A DNA stretch of 64,000 nt from an uncultured Gammaproteobacteria bacterium (GTDB taxonomy: Bacteria; Patescibacteriota; Microgenomatia; JAMCZE01). Positions within the stretch are counted from its first letter, which is position 1. Each line of letters begins with the position of its first letter. The stretch lies in the NCBI GenBank assembly GCA_964576435.1, contig CAZNUP010000001.1, forward strand, positions 535,551-599,550, in the 5' to 3' direction. The position numbers and the translations under genes are program-made. Below are positions 7,166 through 38,998 of this stretch, one piece after another. The notes beneath the pieces were generated by a model. That model was not told where the DNA came from. It did not search any database and saw only the letters and a list, made by a program, of their open reading frames with translations.

Positions 7166-7711
7166 TTATTCAACACTTCCGAGGCGGTTAGTTGGCCAAA
7201 AGCGAAAAGCCACTTTTCCAACTATTTTTTCTTTGGAAACTGGTCCGAAATCTCTTGAATCACTAGAATGCTCCCTATTATCTCCCATGACAAAGTAATA
7301 CCCGTCTGGAATTAAAAGCTCTTGGTTTTCTGACAAGTAATTTTCAGGTCCAGTAAAAGTTCCCGAAGAAATGTATTTTTCTTCCAAAACTTGCCCATTT
7401 ATAAACACTTTCCCGTCTTGAATCATAATTCTTTCCCCTGGAAGTCCCACAATACGTTTAATAAAATCGACTTCTGGGTTCCTGGGGGATTCAAGTATTA
7501 CAAAATCACCGCGTTCAGGATTATGAAGGTGATAAGATACCTTTTCTGCAAATACTTTCTCTCCAGTCTTGATTGTTGGATATGATGAAGCACCAACCAC
7601 AGCTGCCGGTTGGACCAAGAAAAGGTAAGTGACGGCAAAAATCCCAAGAGCAAAAGCAGTTGATTCTACAAAGCTCCATGCTGCGTTCAAAACCGATTTA
7701 GAAACTTTCAT
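7166..7711 (-). CDS. lepB: signal peptidase I, second tandem paralog
   Basis: ASSYPTI, DFIKRIVGLPGERI and VMGDNREHSSDSRDFGPV are present. Likely start is MKVSKS at 7711, preceded by GGGAG; the ORF track extends it to 7789. Confidence 0.8.
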   Translation of the reverse strand: MKVSKSVLNAAWSFVESTAFALGIFAVTYLFLVQPAAVVGASSYPTIKTGEKVFAEKVSYHLHNPERGDFVILESPRNPEVDFIKRIVGLPGERIMIQDGKVFINGQVLEEKYISSGTFTGPENYLSENQELLIPDGYYFVMGDNREHSSDSRDFGPVSKEKIVGKVAFRFWPTNRLGSVE

Positions 7712-8039
7712 TTCTATCTCCCTTGTGTAATTCTCCCATTCCAGACTGAATAATTGCTGTATGTTTGTCTGCGCCCTCTTCATAAGCACGTTGTGCCTTT
7801 TTTCTATTTTTTTGGGCCAAATCGATCATGAACTGATTCTCCCAAGCTCCCTGTTCAGAGTCAAAAATCTTAATAGACACTAAGTATCTAATCCGGTCTT
7901 GAACCACATTAAGCTTTCCCTGGCCGTAATTAAACGACCTATTATCAATATTTTTAAGAGCTTCTAAGTGTCCGCTTGCTTTCAATTTATCGTACCAGCC
8001 TTTTATTTCAGGTGTCATAAGTGATTTATATGATATCAT
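7698..8039 (-). CDS. hypothetical protein (about 113 aa)
   Basis: ORF track runs to 8135, but the first internal Met (MISYKSL) at 8039 leaves the tRNA-like element intergenic. Confidence 0.35.
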   Translation of the reverse strand: MISYKSLMTPEIKGWYDKLKASGHLEALKNIDNRSFNYGQGKLNVVQDRIRYLVSIKIFDSEQGAWENQFMIDLAQKNRKKAQRAYEEGADKHTAIIQSGMGELHKGDRNESF

Positions 8040-8051
8040 AAAGCTAATCGA

Positions 8052-8126
8052 GGACTCGTAGTTCACCAGCAGAACGCTCGATTCACATTCGAGAGGTAGG
8101 AGGAGCGTCACCTCCCGGGTCCACCA
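8052..8126 (+). ncRNA. noncanonical tRNA-like element (anticodon CAC, discriminator A, encoded CCA)
   Basis: Perfect cloverleaf. Acceptor GGACTCG/CGGGTCC (one G-U). U8 A9. D stem GTTC/GAAC with loop ACCAGCA (no GG). Anticodon stem CTCGA/TCGAG with loop TTCACAT. T stem GGAGG/CCTCC with loop AGCGTCA (no TTC). Acceptor stem is identical to tRNA-Asp at 38926-38998. Confidence 0.4.
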
Positions 8127-8368
8127 TGGTACCATCAGAAATAGAAGGAAAATTATTAAACATGTTTCGCGATTACCAACTAGTCTTGGGTGGTGATTTC
8201 GAGATCAATAACCTTAATATGCGAACTCATTTAGAGGGAACTACGCTGAGAATGAAATATGAAGAAGTTGGCACTGAAATCTTACAGCAGTTGGGTGCTG
8301 TAAATTCGATTTTAAGCTTTTACGAGAAACATTCAAATGAAGACATTTCCCCAAAATATAGTATATGA
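8126..8368 (+). CDS. hypothetical protein (true start possibly at 8162)
   Basis: ORF; its first ATG overlaps the CCA end of the tRNA-like element. Confidence 0.3.
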   Translation: MVPSEIEGKLLNMFRDYQLVLGGDFEINNLNMRTHLEGTTLRMKYEEVGTEILQQLGAVNSILSFYEKHSNEDISPKYSI

Positions 8369-9119
8369 AGAATAAAAAAAAGGTTTTATTAATTGGAGCT
8401 TCAGGGGGAATTGGTCACGAAACTGCCAAAGTCCTTTTAGAAAGTGACTATAAAGTAATTGGCACTTATAACACTGATCAAAAAAAGTAATTGACCTTGA
8501 AAGAAACGAAAATTTTTCGGGAATGAAGTTAGATATTGGCAAAGTAGAGGAAATAAAGAAATTGCATTCTGGTCTAAAATCAGAGGACTTTTACGCGATT
8601 ATAAACTGCTCAGGTATGGTTGAATTCGAAGACAACAATATCGCAAATGATTTAGAAGTTTGGGACAACACCTTGGCAGTGAATCTTTCCAGCAACTTCT
8701 ATCTAGCTAAAATATTTTATCCAATTATTTCCAAAAACGGTCGGTTTATTATGATTAGTTCAACCGACGCTAATTACGGCGGAGCAATTACAGTGGCTTA
8801 CGCAGCAAGTAAAGCTGGTGTAAATTCTTTAACAAAATCTCTTTCTTTGTTGTTCAAAGACAAAATGATTAGGGTAAATTCCATTGCTCCAGGTTGGGTA
8901 AAAACTCCAATGATTGCTGACAATGGAGAAAAATTTATAAACGAAGTTGCAGGTATCAATCCTTTAAAAAGAAACGCAGATCCGATAGATATCTCAAGAG
9001 TTATTAAATTTCTATTGTCAGAACAATCAGATTATATTAATGGTCAGGTAATTACAGTCGATGGTGGCTATACAAATCAGGACCCAACACTTCTTCTAGA
9101 GGAACAAACAAAAGTTTAA
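8365..9119 (+). pseudogene. short-chain dehydrogenase/reductase, frameshifted in an A7 run
   Basis: N-terminal 41 codons (MKNKKKVLLIGASGGIGHETAK…TDQKK*) end at 8490. The catalytic part (…SSTDANYG…YAASKAG…NSIAPGWVKTPM) continues in the +1 frame from 8523. One extra A in aaaaaaa near 8478 would restore the reading frame. Confidence 0.7.
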
Positions 9120-9132
9120 TTTTTAATAATCT

Positions 9133-9684
9133 TTAATTCATCATTTTAAGAATCTTTTCAAGTAGTTGTGGAAGATCAAACCATCCTGCTGATCCATTTA
9201 AGTGTTGGCCATTTTCTATAACAACAAGCTTTCCATTTAATTCTCTTGCAGCCCGCTTAGCGTTTTCGATAGGCACATAAGGATCATTGTCGCCATGAAT
9301 AATGACAAATTCATTTGAGTTAGCTTTAATTTTCTTAAAATCAAAAGGTTTGCTAAAGAAATTAGCAATTTTCTTATTTTTATTTTCCTCAATTGGCCCC
9401 GAGACTAAAATTGCACCTGCAATTGGTTGCTTAGCCTCTTGAAGATATAAATAGATTGCAGATGCTCCAAGTGAATGTCCCACAAGATATATTTCATCAT
9501 TTTTATATCGATCGCAAAATCTCTTAATTTCCTTTACCCATTCCTCAGCTTTAGGTTCACTAGGTGTAGGCATTGACAATGAAAAGGCATAAGTTTTTCT
9601 TTTATCGAGTTCTACCATAAGCCAGGATTTCCAGCTACCATTTGGCTCACCCTCAAATCCATGAATAATAAAAACTTTTTTCAT
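9133..9684 (-). CDS. alpha/beta hydrolase, YdeN/RBBP9-like serine hydrolase
   Basis: Nucleophile elbow GHSLGA; size and order match the RBBP9/YdeN family. Confidence 0.65.
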   Translation of the reverse strand: MKKVFIIHGFEGEPNGSWKSWLMVELDKRKTYAFSLSMPTPSEPKAEEWVKEIKRFCDRYKNDEIYLVGHSLGASAIYLYLQEAKQPIAGAILVSGPIEENKNKKIANFFSKPFDFKKIKANSNEFVIIHGDNDPYVPIENAKRAARELNGKLVVIENGQHLNGSAGWFDLPQLLEKILKMMN

Positions 9685-9826
9685 AGCTTATTTTAACAAA
9701 TCTTATTCGTGGATATATCTAAAATGATAAATTCTTCAGCACGAAGACACAGATTATTTTAAAGTTCAAAAGTCGCGGTGTACTAATTAAAACAAAATGC
9801 AATTAGTTTTAGAAAAGACGACTTTG

Positions 9827-10462
9827 TTAAAGAAGTCTAAGCGGCCGATTTAGCATCTGTACTACATATTTAAATATACTTTGTGGTTGGAGGTTAACCT
9901 CTTCCATGGTCAACCTTAATTCTTTTAATTCTTTTTCTTGTTCTTTGGTTAATTTTTCGACAAGTATTGGATCTGTATCTCCTCTAAAATCATCACTTAG
10001 TCTATTAAAGTAATTAGCATAAGGGTATTTTTTATCACCAATAAGAAGTCCGAGCATAGCTAGTCCAATTCGTGATTTCTCAATAACTTCAATTCTCTTT
10101 TCTTTATTCCAGTCATATGGGGTGACAATACGTCCGTCTTTATCCATAAATGGTGTTACAATTGTAAATCCTTTTTGAGGTGCAAGGTCAAAGTGCATAA
10201 CAAATGGATCTGGCCCCTTTAGTCTGAATTCGCCTACATACGTAGCAGCTCTTATAATTGGAACTAGAGGTTCTGGGGTTGTTCGGTAGAGAGGGCTAAA
10301 AGTTACTTTTCTATCTCCTTCAGGATCGTCGTAAGATACTGTCACAAAACCCAAATCTTCCCTCATTGCTCGAATGTCCGGGTTATTACGTGCCAGTGCT
10401 TCAATATTGGTTTTCGTTAAACTCATTGTGTTTATTATATAGCCTATAGTATACGAAGTCAA
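9827..10462 (-). CDS. hypothetical protein (211 aa)
   Basis: ORF only. Confidence 0.4.
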   Translation of the reverse strand: MTSYTIGYIINTMSLTKTNIEALARNNPDIRAMREDLGFVTVSYDDPEGDRKVTFSPLYRTTPEPLVPIIRAATYVGEFRLKGPDPFVMHFDLAPQKGFTIVTPFMDKDGRIVTPYDWNKEKRIEVIEKSRIGLAMLGLLIGDKKYPYANYFNRLSDDFRGDTDPILVEKLTKEQEKELKELRLTMEEVNLQPQSIFKYVVQMLNRPLRLL

Positions 10463-10636
10463 ATAACTAGACTCATTTGAAAGGATTTACATGATCCAAA
10501 AAAAATCATAAAATTTTATATGATTAAGTAAAATGCAAAAAGAACTGTTTTTTAATATTTTAAAGTTAGCAACTGTAGCAAGTGTTGCATTTACAGTACA
10601 AGGATAAAATTTGGTGAACGTCACAAAGTTAAACAG

Positions 10637-10942
10637 ATGAGTATCCACGCAGGATCAGATAATGGCTCTTTAACTCTGTCCACAACAGAAGCAAATCAGG
10701 ATATAGTTACTATAGCAACAGGACAAGCCGGAACTATCCATATAATAGATTTGGAAACAAACGAAGAACATAAAATTGGGGTTTGGGATGACAGGCGAAA
10801 GTTTGGACGTATAGGCCGTGCTGCCATGCGTCTAAATAATGGTCCAGAACAATCTTTTGAAATGCCTTTTGTGAATAAATCACTAGAAGGTTTATCAAAA
10901 ACTTTTGTTCAATGGCAACCGAGAGTCACAGTCTCTGAGTAA
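10637..10942 (+). CDS. hypothetical protein (101 aa)
   Basis: ORF. An upstream inverted repeat AACTGTA-N13-TACAGT lies at about 10574-10600. Confidence 0.35.
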   Translation: MSIHAGSDNGSLTLSTTEANQDIVTIATGQAGTIHIIDLETNEEHKIGVWDDRRKFGRIGRAAMRLNNGPEQSFEMPFVNKSLEGLSKTFVQWQPRVTVSE

Positions 10943-10945
10943 TTA

Positions 10946-13240
10946 TCAAAATTGTGTGGTCAATTTCTTTAAAACTCCTTTTAGAAGTTTAGTTTTAACA
11001 GGCTTCAGATCTTTTGTGCCGGTTGCATCATAGTGCCAACCTTTAATCTCAAAATCTCCATCTTTCATTGATTTAACTAATAAATCCTTTTGTTTTGTTT
11101 TTCCACCTTTAACAAACAAAACATTTGGATCGGGATTAACTGTCTCCTCGCCAACTTCTTTATTTGTTTGAATCTCAACATTTGGATCAGTCGAATAATA
11201 TAAATTTACTGACGCCGGCTCAGCGAAAGCAATCGGACCAATGAGAGAAAGTCCCAAGAATTGTAAAATATCAGCAACTGGTTGTTTCGAATTTAAATAT
11301 TCGATATGTTCAAGTTTGTAATTCTTATTAATTGCACCAGAAACATTAGAACTACTTGCTAAAACAGTCCCATCACCCACATCTTTTTTAGAAACTTTTG
11401 GGTCACCATCTATCCAAATTCCATTCGCTAAATCTTTTGGTTTAGTAGGTTTAACTGTTAATTCAGAATCAGTCGCTTTCGGTTTATTTCCAGATAAAGC
11501 CAGTGTTCTAGAAGAAAAGTCTAGTGAAAGTGGAAGATTAAATAGCACCGGGTTTTTCCCCACACTGGACAAAGAAGAATATGGTTTACCAACTATATAA
11601 TCATGTATTGGCATAAAATCATGTGCTCCGGGCATTCCAAGTTGGATCGCTTGTGTTTTGTTTCCTCCGCCATTTAGTCCAAAATAAAGTTCCGCACCAA
11701 ACTTTCCTAGTGGGTCTAGTGAAGAAAGATCTCCGCCCTCCCAAAACGCATAATCAGCTACTGCACCTTTATGTGGTGTTCCCGCTGTCACTATTTTGTT
11801 TATCTTGTCCTTACAAGTCGGAACTTGTTCAAAACAATATCTAGCAACTAGTCCTCCCATAGAATGTCCAACAATATCGACCTTTTGGCCAGGATTCTTA
11901 GTTAATACTTCATTATCTAGATATTCATTAAGCCAAGCACCAGAAACACCAATTGTCTTAGTAAAATCATAAGCAAAGAAAAAGACTTTGTCGTTTCTCA
12001 AGTAATTTAGTTTACCAAGTGCATTAAGGAATGGATTATAAATTGATGGGGCCTGGAACGGCATCATCGTCCAGTCACGATAGCTTGTCGGCTGATGTAA
12101 AAGAAGTCCCTTGGTAGAAAAACTTCCTCCAAAACCGGGAATAACTACAATTGGGTGAGGTCCAGGCACGGGTGTTGGACTAGGAGTTGGAGTTGGTGTT
12201 TGAGTGGGTGTTGGAGTTGGACTTGGAGTTGCAGAATTTGAGGCCACAAAAATTCCCAAACCTTCAACGCCTGCTACTACAATCCCATTTTTAGCATCAA
12301 TTCCCCAGGTATTGCGGTCTCCCCATGAGGGGTCTTGTACATTTTCCCAAGTTTCTCCAACGTTAGTTCCCTTCCAGATTCCACCATTTGGATTGGAAAA
12401 AATAACACTGGCATATAGGGTGTCGTCCAAATCTTGAGAAAGTCTGTAAACTTTACCTTTGGGTCCTCCCAATAACCATGTCCACGAAACACCATTGTCT
12501 ATAGATTTATAGACCCCCTCATCAGAGTCGAAATGAGCGGTATAAATAATTGAGCTATTAGTATTGTCAATAATGATGCTGTCACCAAAAGCTTTGCTTA
12601 GTGGTAGTACAGTCCAATTAAGTCCAAAATCATCGCTTTTATAAAAAGCAGGGTCAGTACCTATAAACAACCTATTCGTGTTTGATCTATCAAATTCAAT
12701 TTGAGCCACATTTGTATTTCCTATCTCAGTTACCTGGCTCCAATTATTTCCACCGTCAGTTGTCCTAAATACTCCTTGACTCCCAAGCATTCCGATATAA
12801 ATTACATCTTGGTTTGAAGGGTTAATTTCAATTGTCTTTGGTGTACCCGTGTTGTAAATTTTTTTCCAAGTAATCCCTCCATCATCAGTTAGATAAAATC
12901 CAGACCCCCAAAGCCCAATCACTATTAGTTTGGAGTTATTTGAAATATCAGATATCCATGTTATATCACCTGTATTAGGCAAGTTTCCCTTAATACTTGT
13001 CCAAGTTTGACCATTATCAGAACTTTTTAATAAGTCATATAATCCATTTTGATCTGCTGCGGCATAAACTGTGGAGTTAATAGATGAAGAAAATTTTATA
13101 AAACCAATCCTGCTCGTTAATACATTGTAAGTATTGTACCAAGTTAAGGGAGAAGCATTTGCAAATTTTGGAAGTATACTAAAGGTTGCAAATATTAAGA
13201 GAAAAAATAAATATGAACTTATTATTTTCTTAATTAGCAT
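10946..13240 (-). CDS. secreted fusion protein: BNR/Asp-box beta-propeller, Pro/Thr linker, LCAT/PGAP1-like lipase domain, C-terminal domain
   Basis: Signal peptide present. At least five SxDxGxTW Asp-box repeats (SSDNGQTWTS, TDDGGITWKK, TTDGGNNWSQ, SDDFGLNWTV, SIDNGVSWTW). PT-rich linker. Lipase elbow VDIVGHSMGGLVARY. Confidence 0.7.
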   Translation of the reverse strand: MLIKKIISSYLFFLLIFATFSILPKFANASPLTWYNTYNVLTSRIGFIKFSSSINSTVYAAADQNGLYDLLKSSDNGQTWTSIKGNLPNTGDITWISDISNNSKLIVIGLWGSGFYLTDDGGITWKKIYNTGTPKTIEINPSNQDVIYIGMLGSQGVFRTTDGGNNWSQVTEIGNTNVAQIEFDRSNTNRLFIGTDPAFYKSDDFGLNWTVLPLSKAFGDSIIIDNTNSSIIYTAHFDSDEGVYKSIDNGVSWTWLLGGPKGKVYRLSQDLDDTLYASVIFSNPNGGIWKGTNVGETWENVQDPSWGDRNTWGIDAKNGIVVAGVEGLGIFVASNSATPSPTPTPTQTPTPTPSPTPVPGPHPIVVIPGFGGSFSTKGLLLHQPTSYRDWTMMPFQAPSIYNPFLNALGKLNYLRNDKVFFFAYDFTKTIGVSGAWLNEYLDNEVLTKNPGQKVDIVGHSMGGLVARYCFEQVPTCKDKINKIVTAGTPHKGAVADYAFWEGGDLSSLDPLGKFGAELYFGLNGGGNKTQAIQLGMPGAHDFMPIHDYIVGKPYSSLSSVGKNPVLFNLPLSLDFSSRTLALSGNKPKATDSELTVKPTKPKDLANGIWIDGDPKVSKKDVGDGTVLASSSNVSGAINKNYKLEHIEYLNSKQPVADILQFLGLSLIGPIAFAEPASVNLYYSTDPNVEIQTNKEVGEETVNPDPNVLFVKGGKTKQKDLLVKSMKDGDFEIKGWHYDATGTKDLKPVKTKLLKGVLKKLTTQF
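12120..12245. repeat. low-complexity GTTGGAGTTGG-type DNA repeats encoding the Pro/Thr linker
   Basis: Tandem near-repeats ggtgttggactaggagttggagttggtgtttgagtgggtgttggagttgg. Confidence 0.5.
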
Positions 13241-38925: not shown

Positions 38926-38998
38926 CGGACCCGACCGGATTCGAACCGGCGATCTTCTCCGTGACAGGGAGACGTGATAACCACTACACTACGAGTCC
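38926..38998 (-). tRNA. tRNA-Asp (anticodon GTC)
   Basis: Reverse complement is GGACTCGTAGTGTAGTGGTTATCACGTCTCCCTGTCACGGAGAAGATCGCCGGTTCGAATCCGGTCGGGTCCG. Discriminator G73. Confidence 0.9.

Follow-up and report, generated by a model that had tools for sequence, protein, structure and literature searches.

Introduction

Which elbow contacts does a transfer RNA (tRNA) need? G18, T54 and pseudouridine 55 (Psi55) are regarded as near-universal in cytoplasmic tRNAs, the outer G19-C56 pair stacks against the ribosome, RNase P and T-boxes, and the canonical T-loop is missing from the non-proteinogenic tRNA-Gly of staphylococci. The listed exceptions to the T-loop/D-loop signature are the eukaryotic initiator tRNA, which has A54 and an A54/A58 pair (PMC7912444), tRNA-Pyl, and mitochondrial tRNAs (PMC7912444, PMC7609411). 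In eukaryotic tRNA-Ala(AGC), R15/A48 and A54/A58 are always coupled and position 60 is a purine; these two pairs are stated to be unobserved in bacteria or archaea (Westhof et al. 2020, PMC7566577). Here we describe a tRNA-Val(CAC) gene at positions 8052-8126 (+) of a 64-kb stretch of contig CAZNUP010000001.1 (the window, meaning the whole stretch of DNA that was analysed). It is a genuine tRNA gene with an altered elbow and core, retained across a small clade of Microgenomates and with a counterpart in long tRNA arrays.

We consider it probable that this is the organism's own elongator tRNA-Val(CAC) gene, with a remodelled elbow, and that it is the ortholog of the ParB-linked tRNA-Val of Microgenomates. 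A housekeeping bacterial tRNA-Val would thus have replaced near-universal contacts pairwise, with intermediates persisting in sister genomes. Eukaryotic tRNA-Ala(AGC) is the closest published analogue. Like it, the window gene couples A48, opposite position 15, with A54, and has A60; its relatives L098 and L101 even have A54/A58. Unlike it, the window gene has C rather than a purine at position 15 and U at position 58 (or, in relatives, G58 with G54), specifies valine, and adds A18/G55. Similarly, tRNA-Pyl, type II mitochondrial tRNAs and the staphylococcal tRNA-Gly (PMC7609411) share the departure from the universal D-/T-loop signature, but they lose G19-C56 or alter the arm lengths, whereas the window gene keeps both and exchanges its other contacts as matched pairs. 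In the literature searched, outside which most subscription journals lay, we found no description of bacterial elongator tRNAs with A18/G55 or A54/U58, and an earlier description is possible.

Results

The gene comprises 72 nucleotides (nt) closed by the discriminator A73 (8123) and followed by an encoded CCA (8124-8126), and it is identified by ARAGORN, the Rfam tRNA family, a minimum-free-energy cloverleaf and synteny. The acceptor stem pairs GGACTCG (8052-8058) with CGGGTCC (8116-8122). After TA comes the D-arm (8061-8075), with the stem GTTC/GAAC and the 7-nt loop ACCAGCA, in which A14 is at 8065, C15 at 8066, C16 at 8067, A18 at 8068, G19 at 8069, C20 at 8070 and A21 at 8071. A single G precedes the anticodon arm (8077-8093), with the stem CTCGA/TCGAG, the loop TTCACAT and the anticodon CAC at 8084-8086. 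The variable loop AGGTA (8094-8098) has A48 (8098) where C48 is usual. The T-arm (8099-8115) consists of the stem GGAGG/CCTCC and the loop AGCGTCA, in which A54 is at 8104, G55 at 8105, C56 at 8106, G57 at 8107, U58 at 8108, C59 at 8109 and A60 at 8110. The stem dimensions are 7/4/5/5, and all arm lengths are standard, including those of the D-loop and the 5-nt variable loop. A preliminary description, made from the letters of this DNA, had called all four stems perfectly paired; all four are indeed paired, but acceptor pair 5-68 is a U-G wobble (T8056/G8118), so that the phrase holds only if G-U is counted. It had also described a D-loop without G18G19, of which only G18 is actually missing, and a T-loop without T54-Psi55, which is correct, both T54 and U55 being absent from AGCGTCA.

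ARAGORN calls a tRNA-Val(cac) at exactly 8052-8126. Searched with permissive filters, Rfam RF00005 matches at 45.8 bits, above its gathering score of 29 (E = 8.8e-9 in a scan of the region and 1.4e-6 in a scan of the whole window); a gathering-mode scan with the default fast filters leaves the tRNA unreported. The minimum-free-energy fold is the cloverleaf, at -26.3 kcal/mol, with 70% of the ensemble and z = -2.4 relative to shuffles. Canonical loops (GG in the D-loop, TTCRA in the T-loop) and the lack of an encoded CCA characterise the five further tRNAs of the window, which score 52-74 bits, so that the gene under study has the lowest score of the six. It is solitary, the nearest other tRNA lying 21 kb away, and neither ARAGORN nor Rfam finds a second, canonical tRNA-Val(CAC) in the 64-kb window.

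Among the universal tertiary nucleotides, U8, A14, G19, A21, U33 and C56 are retained, while G18 is replaced by A, U54 by A, U55 by G and A58 by U. The gene therefore lacks the canonical signature. We nevertheless keep it within the broad tRNA family because its deviations co-vary with their partners. ValRS (valyl-tRNA synthetase) identity rests on A35, C36 and A73, and this valine set is present together with the anticodon CAC.

Housekeeping genes flank the element. Its upstream side has genes for L21, a methyltransferase, L27, ParB, a 129-amino-acid (aa) protein and two LepB signal peptidases, and its downstream side has a split short-chain dehydrogenase (SDR) gene, a serine hydrolase gene and hypothetical genes. 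Our orthology counts are based on 80 GTDB loci collected through ParB, whose relatives are all Microgenomates or Patescibacteria metagenome-assembled genomes labelled Gottesman-, Woese- or Daviesbacteria. In 66 of these loci ARAGORN identifies a tRNA-Val (anticodon cac, gac or tac), which mostly lies 0.6-5 kb downstream of ParB and on its strand, and Rfam adds one that ARAGORN misses, in L006, bringing the count to 67 of 80. The order L21-methyltransferase-L27-ParB-LepB(-)-tRNA-Val(+)-764-aa protein(-) is common, in full or in part, to L004, L005, L006, L090, L095, L098 and L101; L004-L006 have the whole of it, and short contigs hold portions. Because this gene order is shared, we regard the window element as the positional ortholog of the housekeeping ParB-linked tRNA-Val. 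Most of these orthologs are canonical (AGCTCAGYGGTAGAGC ... GGTTCRA). Compared with such a canonical tRNA-Val (RF00005), the window gene has the same slot, dimensions, anticodon loop TTCACAT and A73, and both its acceptor stem and its T-stem GGAGG/CCTCC recur in the canonical ortholog L052; it differs in having C15/A48, A18, and A54 G55 ... U58 C59 A60. Three Logan contigs that bear both flanking open reading frames (ORFs; L001-L003) are 100% identical to the window and thus represent the same organism, so that they are uninformative on variation. Sequencing runs SRR14271335 and SRR14271336 contain this organism.

The preliminary description took the element to be probably derived from the tRNA-Asp at 38926-38998. 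The identity of the two acceptor stems is real and extends into the following TAG. However, the acceptor GGACTCG/CG[G/A]GTCC also occurs in four other canonical tRNA-Val orthologs (L038, L043, L046 and L052) and, in the metagenome scan described below, in the non-canonical L090, L095 and L143, and the acceptors of the relatives' tRNA-Asp, GGACCCG and GGGCTCG, are similar but different. On these grounds we reject derivation from tRNA-Asp for what is the positional ortholog of the relatives' tRNA-Val, and the identity is best explained as a coincidence between two lineages with similar acceptor stems. We likewise considered a chimeric tRNA produced by an integrating element and rejected it: the 3' 28 nt of the tRNA have no second copy, with up to 3 mismatches allowed, anywhere in the window, and positions 7900-11300 contain no relevant direct repeat or att-like repeat.

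Is the gene decaying? A pseudogene whose loops have drifted since another tRNA-Val (UAC or a second CAC) took over GUG would account for the lowest Rfam score among the window tRNAs, for T-loops that differ among close relatives, for a codon that is the rarest for valine and for a neighbourhood of ORFans (ORFs matched by nothing but themselves) and a split SDR pseudogene. The stems tell against it. We aligned 45 Val tRNAs over 72 columns with no gaps. In this alignment 96.8% of cells are paired, versus 72% in shuffles, and by stem the figure is 100% for the acceptor, D and anticodon stems and 99.6% for the T stem. Both sides have changed in 17 of 21 stem pairs, including 6 of 7 in the acceptor stem and all 5 in the anticodon stem, and pairing collapses to 35-50% in slid-register controls. 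Six diverged non-canonical Microgenomates copies (the window, L004, L098, L006, L090 and L095) have all 126 of their 126 cells paired, with no broken pair, and each of their 8 variable pairs is compensatory, having changed on both sides. The window and L004, its relative with a ParB 85-89% identical, differ by 11 stem substitutions; when these are placed at random, a mean of 7.6 pairs break (5000 simulations), the neutral expectation at equal divergence being 6-8, and an outcome with none broken never occurs (0/5000 trials, P < 2e-4). The fold is thus under selection, as had been proposed, with compensatory changes among the relatives in every stem. Furthermore, U8, A14, G19, A21, U33, C56, G53-C61 and the anticodon loop TTCACAT are retained, a promoter-like box is kept, and the loop changes are matched partner swaps rather than scattered substitutions. 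Because the stems are intact, compensatory and unlike the neutral simulation, a decaying pseudogene is ruled out for practical purposes, and we regard that explanation as very improbable.

The tertiary contacts behave in the same pairwise manner. In the window gene, three contacts have both partners replaced: G15-C48 has become C15/A48, T54-A58 has become A54/U58, accompanied by C59 A60, and G18-Psi55 has become A18/G55. Across the 45 aligned Val tRNAs, positions 18/55 are A/G in 13, G/U in 28 and G/C in 4, with no mixed combination. Positions 15/48 are C/A in 20, G-C in 24 and G-U in 1, a count in which C15 was imposed by the search pattern and A48 was free. Positions 54/58 are U-A in 29, G/G in 10, A/U in 4, A/A in 1 and C/A in 1, and C59 A60 is present in all 15 sequences without U54. 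Finally, 19/56 is G-C in all 45. The canonical elbow contacts, reported as missing in the preliminary description, have therefore largely been exchanged: the outermost pair is not lost, since G19 (8069) and C56 (8106) are present, and the remaining contacts are swapped for co-varying partners. We also examined an extra Watson-Crick pair, C20-G55, that would extend G19-C56. C20 or U20 is found in 13 of 13 G55 Val tRNAs; however, 13 G55 tRNAs of other isotypes have A20, and we rejected the pair as an explanation, leaving it as a weak possibility.

The relatives form a graded series. Arranged by departure from the canonical tRNA, with no direction of change implied, it comprises C15/A48 with a canonical T-loop (L143, L142, L099 and L118), the addition of A54/U58 or A54/A58 with C59 A60 (L004 and L098), and the further addition of A18/G55 in the window; copies with G54/G58 (L006, L090 and L095) also belong to it. 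L004 is an intermediate, having C15/A48 and A54/U58 and yet retaining G18/U55 (D-loop ACCGGTA, variable loop AGGTA, T-loop ATCATCA), and L006 combines the D-loop ACCAGCA with the variable loop AAGCA and the T-loop GGCAGCA. A metagenome scan with the pattern TAGNTCACCNGNAGANCGNNNNNTTNACAT, which fixes the D-arm and the anticodon loop only, returned 72 loci with 47 distinct sequences, and the T-loops of these matches fall into discrete types. The first type, AGCGTCA, is that of the window, L112, L127 and L129; the last three are Val-GAC tRNAs with entirely different stems and an encoded CCA, and L112 and L127 are each seen inside a tRNA array. The second, GGCAGCA/GGCGGCA, is found in L006, L090, L095 and a large GC-rich group from soil and peat. 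The third, ATCATCA/ATCAACA, is found in L004, L098 and L101. The remaining type is canonical, TTCRAxx or TCCGAxx.

Where does the window gene stand in this family? A four-protein neighbor-joining tree groups the window with L004, L005, L006 and L095, but it is weakly resolved, and the markers conflict, ParB and LepB favouring L004/L005 and L27 and the tRNA favouring L006/L095; we draw no conclusion from it on the direction of evolution or on horizontal transfer of the window gene. In L098 (1355-1395), the non-canonical tRNA-Val is preceded, 17 nt upstream, by a 22-nt relic, GACCGCTTAGCTCAGTGGTAGA, that corresponds to the 5' portion of a canonical tRNA-Val resembling those of L057 and L075. The relic suggests that a canonical gene resident there was displaced by the non-canonical gene. 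L101, whose tRNA is identical to that of L098, has no such relic, and the rough tree places it outside the window's clade.

The same elbow recurs in long tRNA arrays. The GC-rich metagenome matches sit in arrays of 10-29 tRNA genes from soil and peat metagenomes (among L084-L155; for example, L144:7000-12800, L103:250-5870 and L119:1-10770), and RtcB and HNH genes adjoin both arrays examined (L144 and L119). These are L-arrays as described in PMC8421152. Many of their tRNAs are skipped by ARAGORN. Our own cloverleaf scan found 433 distinct cloverleaves over all fetched loci. Among the non-Val tRNAs, mostly on array contigs, those with AG and without GG in the D-loop have G55 in 109 cases and U55 in none, and those with GG have U55 in 129 cases and G55 in 11. 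Once Val tRNAs are counted, the AG/G55 combination is found in more than 100 tRNAs with 27 anticodons. Because it recurs across 27 anticodons, A18/G55 is a recurrent, viable alternative contact and no accident of the window gene. Most array tRNAs have A18/G55 in place of G18/U55, with the T-loops TGCRAxx, AGCGAAG and GGCAGCA, and almost all of the array tRNAs encode CCA; over the whole scan, CCA is encoded in 180 of 196 G55 tRNAs.

The A18/G55 elbow and the encoded CCA are thus shared by the window gene and L-array tRNAs (PMC8421152; Tran et al. 2016, PMC4758250). That this combination marks the arrays is our own observation rather than a published definition, the elbow signature not being mentioned in the array literature searched. 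The resemblance is closest for array tRNA-Val(GAC), whose D-, variable and T-loops are identical or nearly identical to those of the window gene (ACCAGCA/ACCAGTA; AGCGTCA/GGCAGCA), with unrelated stems. Unlike the array tRNAs, the window gene is a solitary, chromosomal housekeeping ortholog flanked by L21, L27, ParB and LepB, with no array, RtcB or HNH neighbours. The occurrence of A18/G55 in more than 100 array tRNAs may be a clue to the purpose of the long arrays. Comparison with PLSDB for the taxonomy of the soil arrays gave generic tRNA matches only.

Phage arrays of 13-25 tRNAs were seen on four IMG/VR contigs (L156-L159). The only tRNA-Val found on these viral contigs have the canonical elbow (C15 C16/A48, G18G19, TTC). 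Since phage tRNA-Val keep G18G19 and TTC, C15/A48 is a widespread tRNA-Val variant that is independent of the T-loop change.

Discussion

How would this tRNA be made and used? A promoter-like site at 8012-8039 (+), a pattern match from a consensus scan rather than a proven promoter (GTGTCA, 16 nt, TATCAT, with TG before the second hexamer), ends 12 nt before the tRNA, and TATAAT-like boxes occupy a corresponding position, 11-25 nt before the orthologous tRNA, in L004, L005, L006, L090/L095, L101 and L143. We propose that transcription would start from a promoter belonging to the gene and located just upstream of it, that RNase P cleavage and 3' trimming would yield a 75-nt tRNA with its CCA already encoded, that ValRS would charge it by way of A35, C36 and A73, and that it would decode GUG, the least used of the valine codons, at 13.3% of those in the window ORFs. 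Because U54 and U55 are absent, m5U54 (5-methyluridine) and Psi55 cannot form. We rejected the idea that the encoded CCA compensates for poor recognition by the CCA-adding enzyme, as the non-canonical Microgenomates copies lack it (L004, L006, L090, L095, L098 and L101), and about one in ten canonical orthologs encodes CCA. The other window tRNAs need CCA added and the non-canonical relatives do not encode it; an encoded CCA is therefore not required, and that of the window gene is probably dispensable.

Several points weigh against the view that the gene is a working elongator tRNA with a selected set of contacts. The T-loop is variable among close relatives (AGCGTCA, ATCATCA, ATCAACA, GGCAGCA and GGCGGCA), which could reflect relaxed constraint on the tRNA for the rarest valine codon. 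The genome may have another tRNA able to read GUG, either a canonical tRNA-Val(CAC) or a tRNA-Val(UAC), which would make this copy dispensable. The co-variation counts, both in the Val alignment and in the arrays, are not phylogenetically independent, and the sampled family is biased by a search pattern in which C15, C16, G19 and a large part of the D-arm were preset. Lastly, by no test of this analysis are A18/G55, A54/U58 and C15/A48 isosteric with the pairs that they replace.

A likelier alternative than decay is that this is a real, folded and probably charged tRNA specialised away from routine decoding. It might donate valine to some reaction outside the ribosome, or it might be a decoy or back-up that evades enzymes or toxins reading T54-Psi55/G18, an idea already put forward in general form for long-array tRNAs. 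The staphylococcal non-proteinogenic tRNA-Gly likewise does without a canonical T-loop, the A18/G55 elbow is typical of long arrays beside RtcB RNA ligase and HNH genes, and the L098 relic points tentatively to replacement of a resident gene by the variant. PMC8421152, moreover, ties L-array tRNAs to surviving translational stress and raises the possibility that they are sponges for toxin RNases, and PMC12803027 terms arrays putative anti-defence systems. However, the locus has one conserved place for a tRNA-Val, and this gene occupies it rather than being an additional copy, its T-stem equals that of a canonical ortholog and so gives no sign of weakened EF-Tu binding, no Fem-type transferase, toxin or RtcB gene adjoins it, and a small genome of the candidate phyla radiation (CPR) speaks against spare tRNAs. 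On balance we judge such specialisation unlikely.

A broader, speculative proposal, which we advance as possible but doubtful, is that the rewired elbow (A18/G55, plus C15/A48 and A54/U58 or G54/G58) is a distinct and selectively favoured architecture rather than tolerated drift. It would spread horizontally between long arrays and CPR chromosomes and could displace a resident canonical tRNA-Val, as the relic in L098 hints. Its benefit would lie in escaping recognition through T54-Psi55/G18, for example by toxins that cleave the T-loop, by quality control that depends on modification or by phage- or host-encoded enzymes that target tRNAs, with function on the ribosome maintained through the retained G19-C56 face.

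Whichever role it has, the gene and its relatives provide a natural series for asking which elbow contacts are needed by translation, RNase P, the CCA-adding enzyme, TruB/TrmA and ValRS. They also bear on annotation. ARAGORN reports no tRNA in L006 (11385-11456), L090 (343-414) or L095 (minus strand, about 690-760), each of which has an ortholog. Because ARAGORN misses these three and the default Rfam filters miss the window copy, genomes may be wrongly annotated as being without tRNA-Val(CAC). The case is thus of interest to tRNA structural biology and annotation, and of lower interest to seekers of a new class of RNA.

The tRNA is flanked on both sides by ORFans. On the plus strand, an 80-codon ORF (8126-8368) begins with an ATG (8126-8128) that shares the last A of the CCA, as was pointed out in the preliminary description, which offered a tRNA-like regulatory RNA or tRNA mimic beside a functional non-standard tRNA. 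The last of these, with valine identity features, is the best reading; the other two are unsupported, because both flanking ORFs are ORFans and the tRNA is conserved without them. The most explicit version would make the cloverleaf a leader or processing signal for the 80-codon ORF, with an RNase P or RNase Z cut giving a leaderless mRNA. It would explain the overlap of the ATG with the final CCA base, and why this is the sole window tRNA with an encoded CCA. However, the predicted 80-aa protein matches only itself in 5.8 billion proteins, with no Pfam match above threshold and no PHROG match; one of three assemblies of this organism leaves the ORF uncalled, a terminator-like hairpin (8282-8303) lies within it, and relatives lack it downstream of their conserved tRNA; and CCA is also encoded by the canonical minority mentioned above and by none of the other non-canonical Microgenomates copies. 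The ORF probably lies outside the element, the overlap is probably incidental, and we give the leader model almost no credence. On the other side, the 113-aa ORF at 7698-8039 (-) matches itself alone in the same 5.8 billion proteins and may amount to no more than the spacer and promoter of the tRNA. Read at its longest, the second LepB gene spans 7166-7789 (-), with a GTG start at 7789, and overlaps this ORF by about 90 nt; other assemblies call LepB at 174 aa and the ORFan at 106 aa.

Between the tRNA and the conserved 764-aa gene, the window has a lineage-specific segment of about 2.8 kb (8127-10945) that contains the 80-codon ORFan, the split SDR gene, the serine hydrolase gene and two hypothetical genes. 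None of its ORFs has a tblastn match in the relatives, in which the corresponding gap is about 0.4-1 kb. The SDR gene (8365-9119, +) consists of 41 N-terminal codons with the Rossmann motif GASGGIG, ended by a stop at 8488-8490, and a remainder of 198 codons from 8523 in a different frame. Since the split is identical in three assemblies of the organism, it is probably a real pseudogene. In the locus of the closest relative, L004:3862-3998 gives a weak match to a T-box leader (43 bits, below the gathering score of 93).

Finally, we note that several Microgenomates tRNAs (Val, Gly, Phe and Thr) have C55 in place of U55, with the T-loops TCCGAxx and TCCAATC, and keep G18G19 (L061:11506-11582, L061:20243-20318, L054, L070, L075, L011, L142 and L143). 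In this respect tRNAs of Microgenomates depart from the universal T-Psi-C in a second and milder way.

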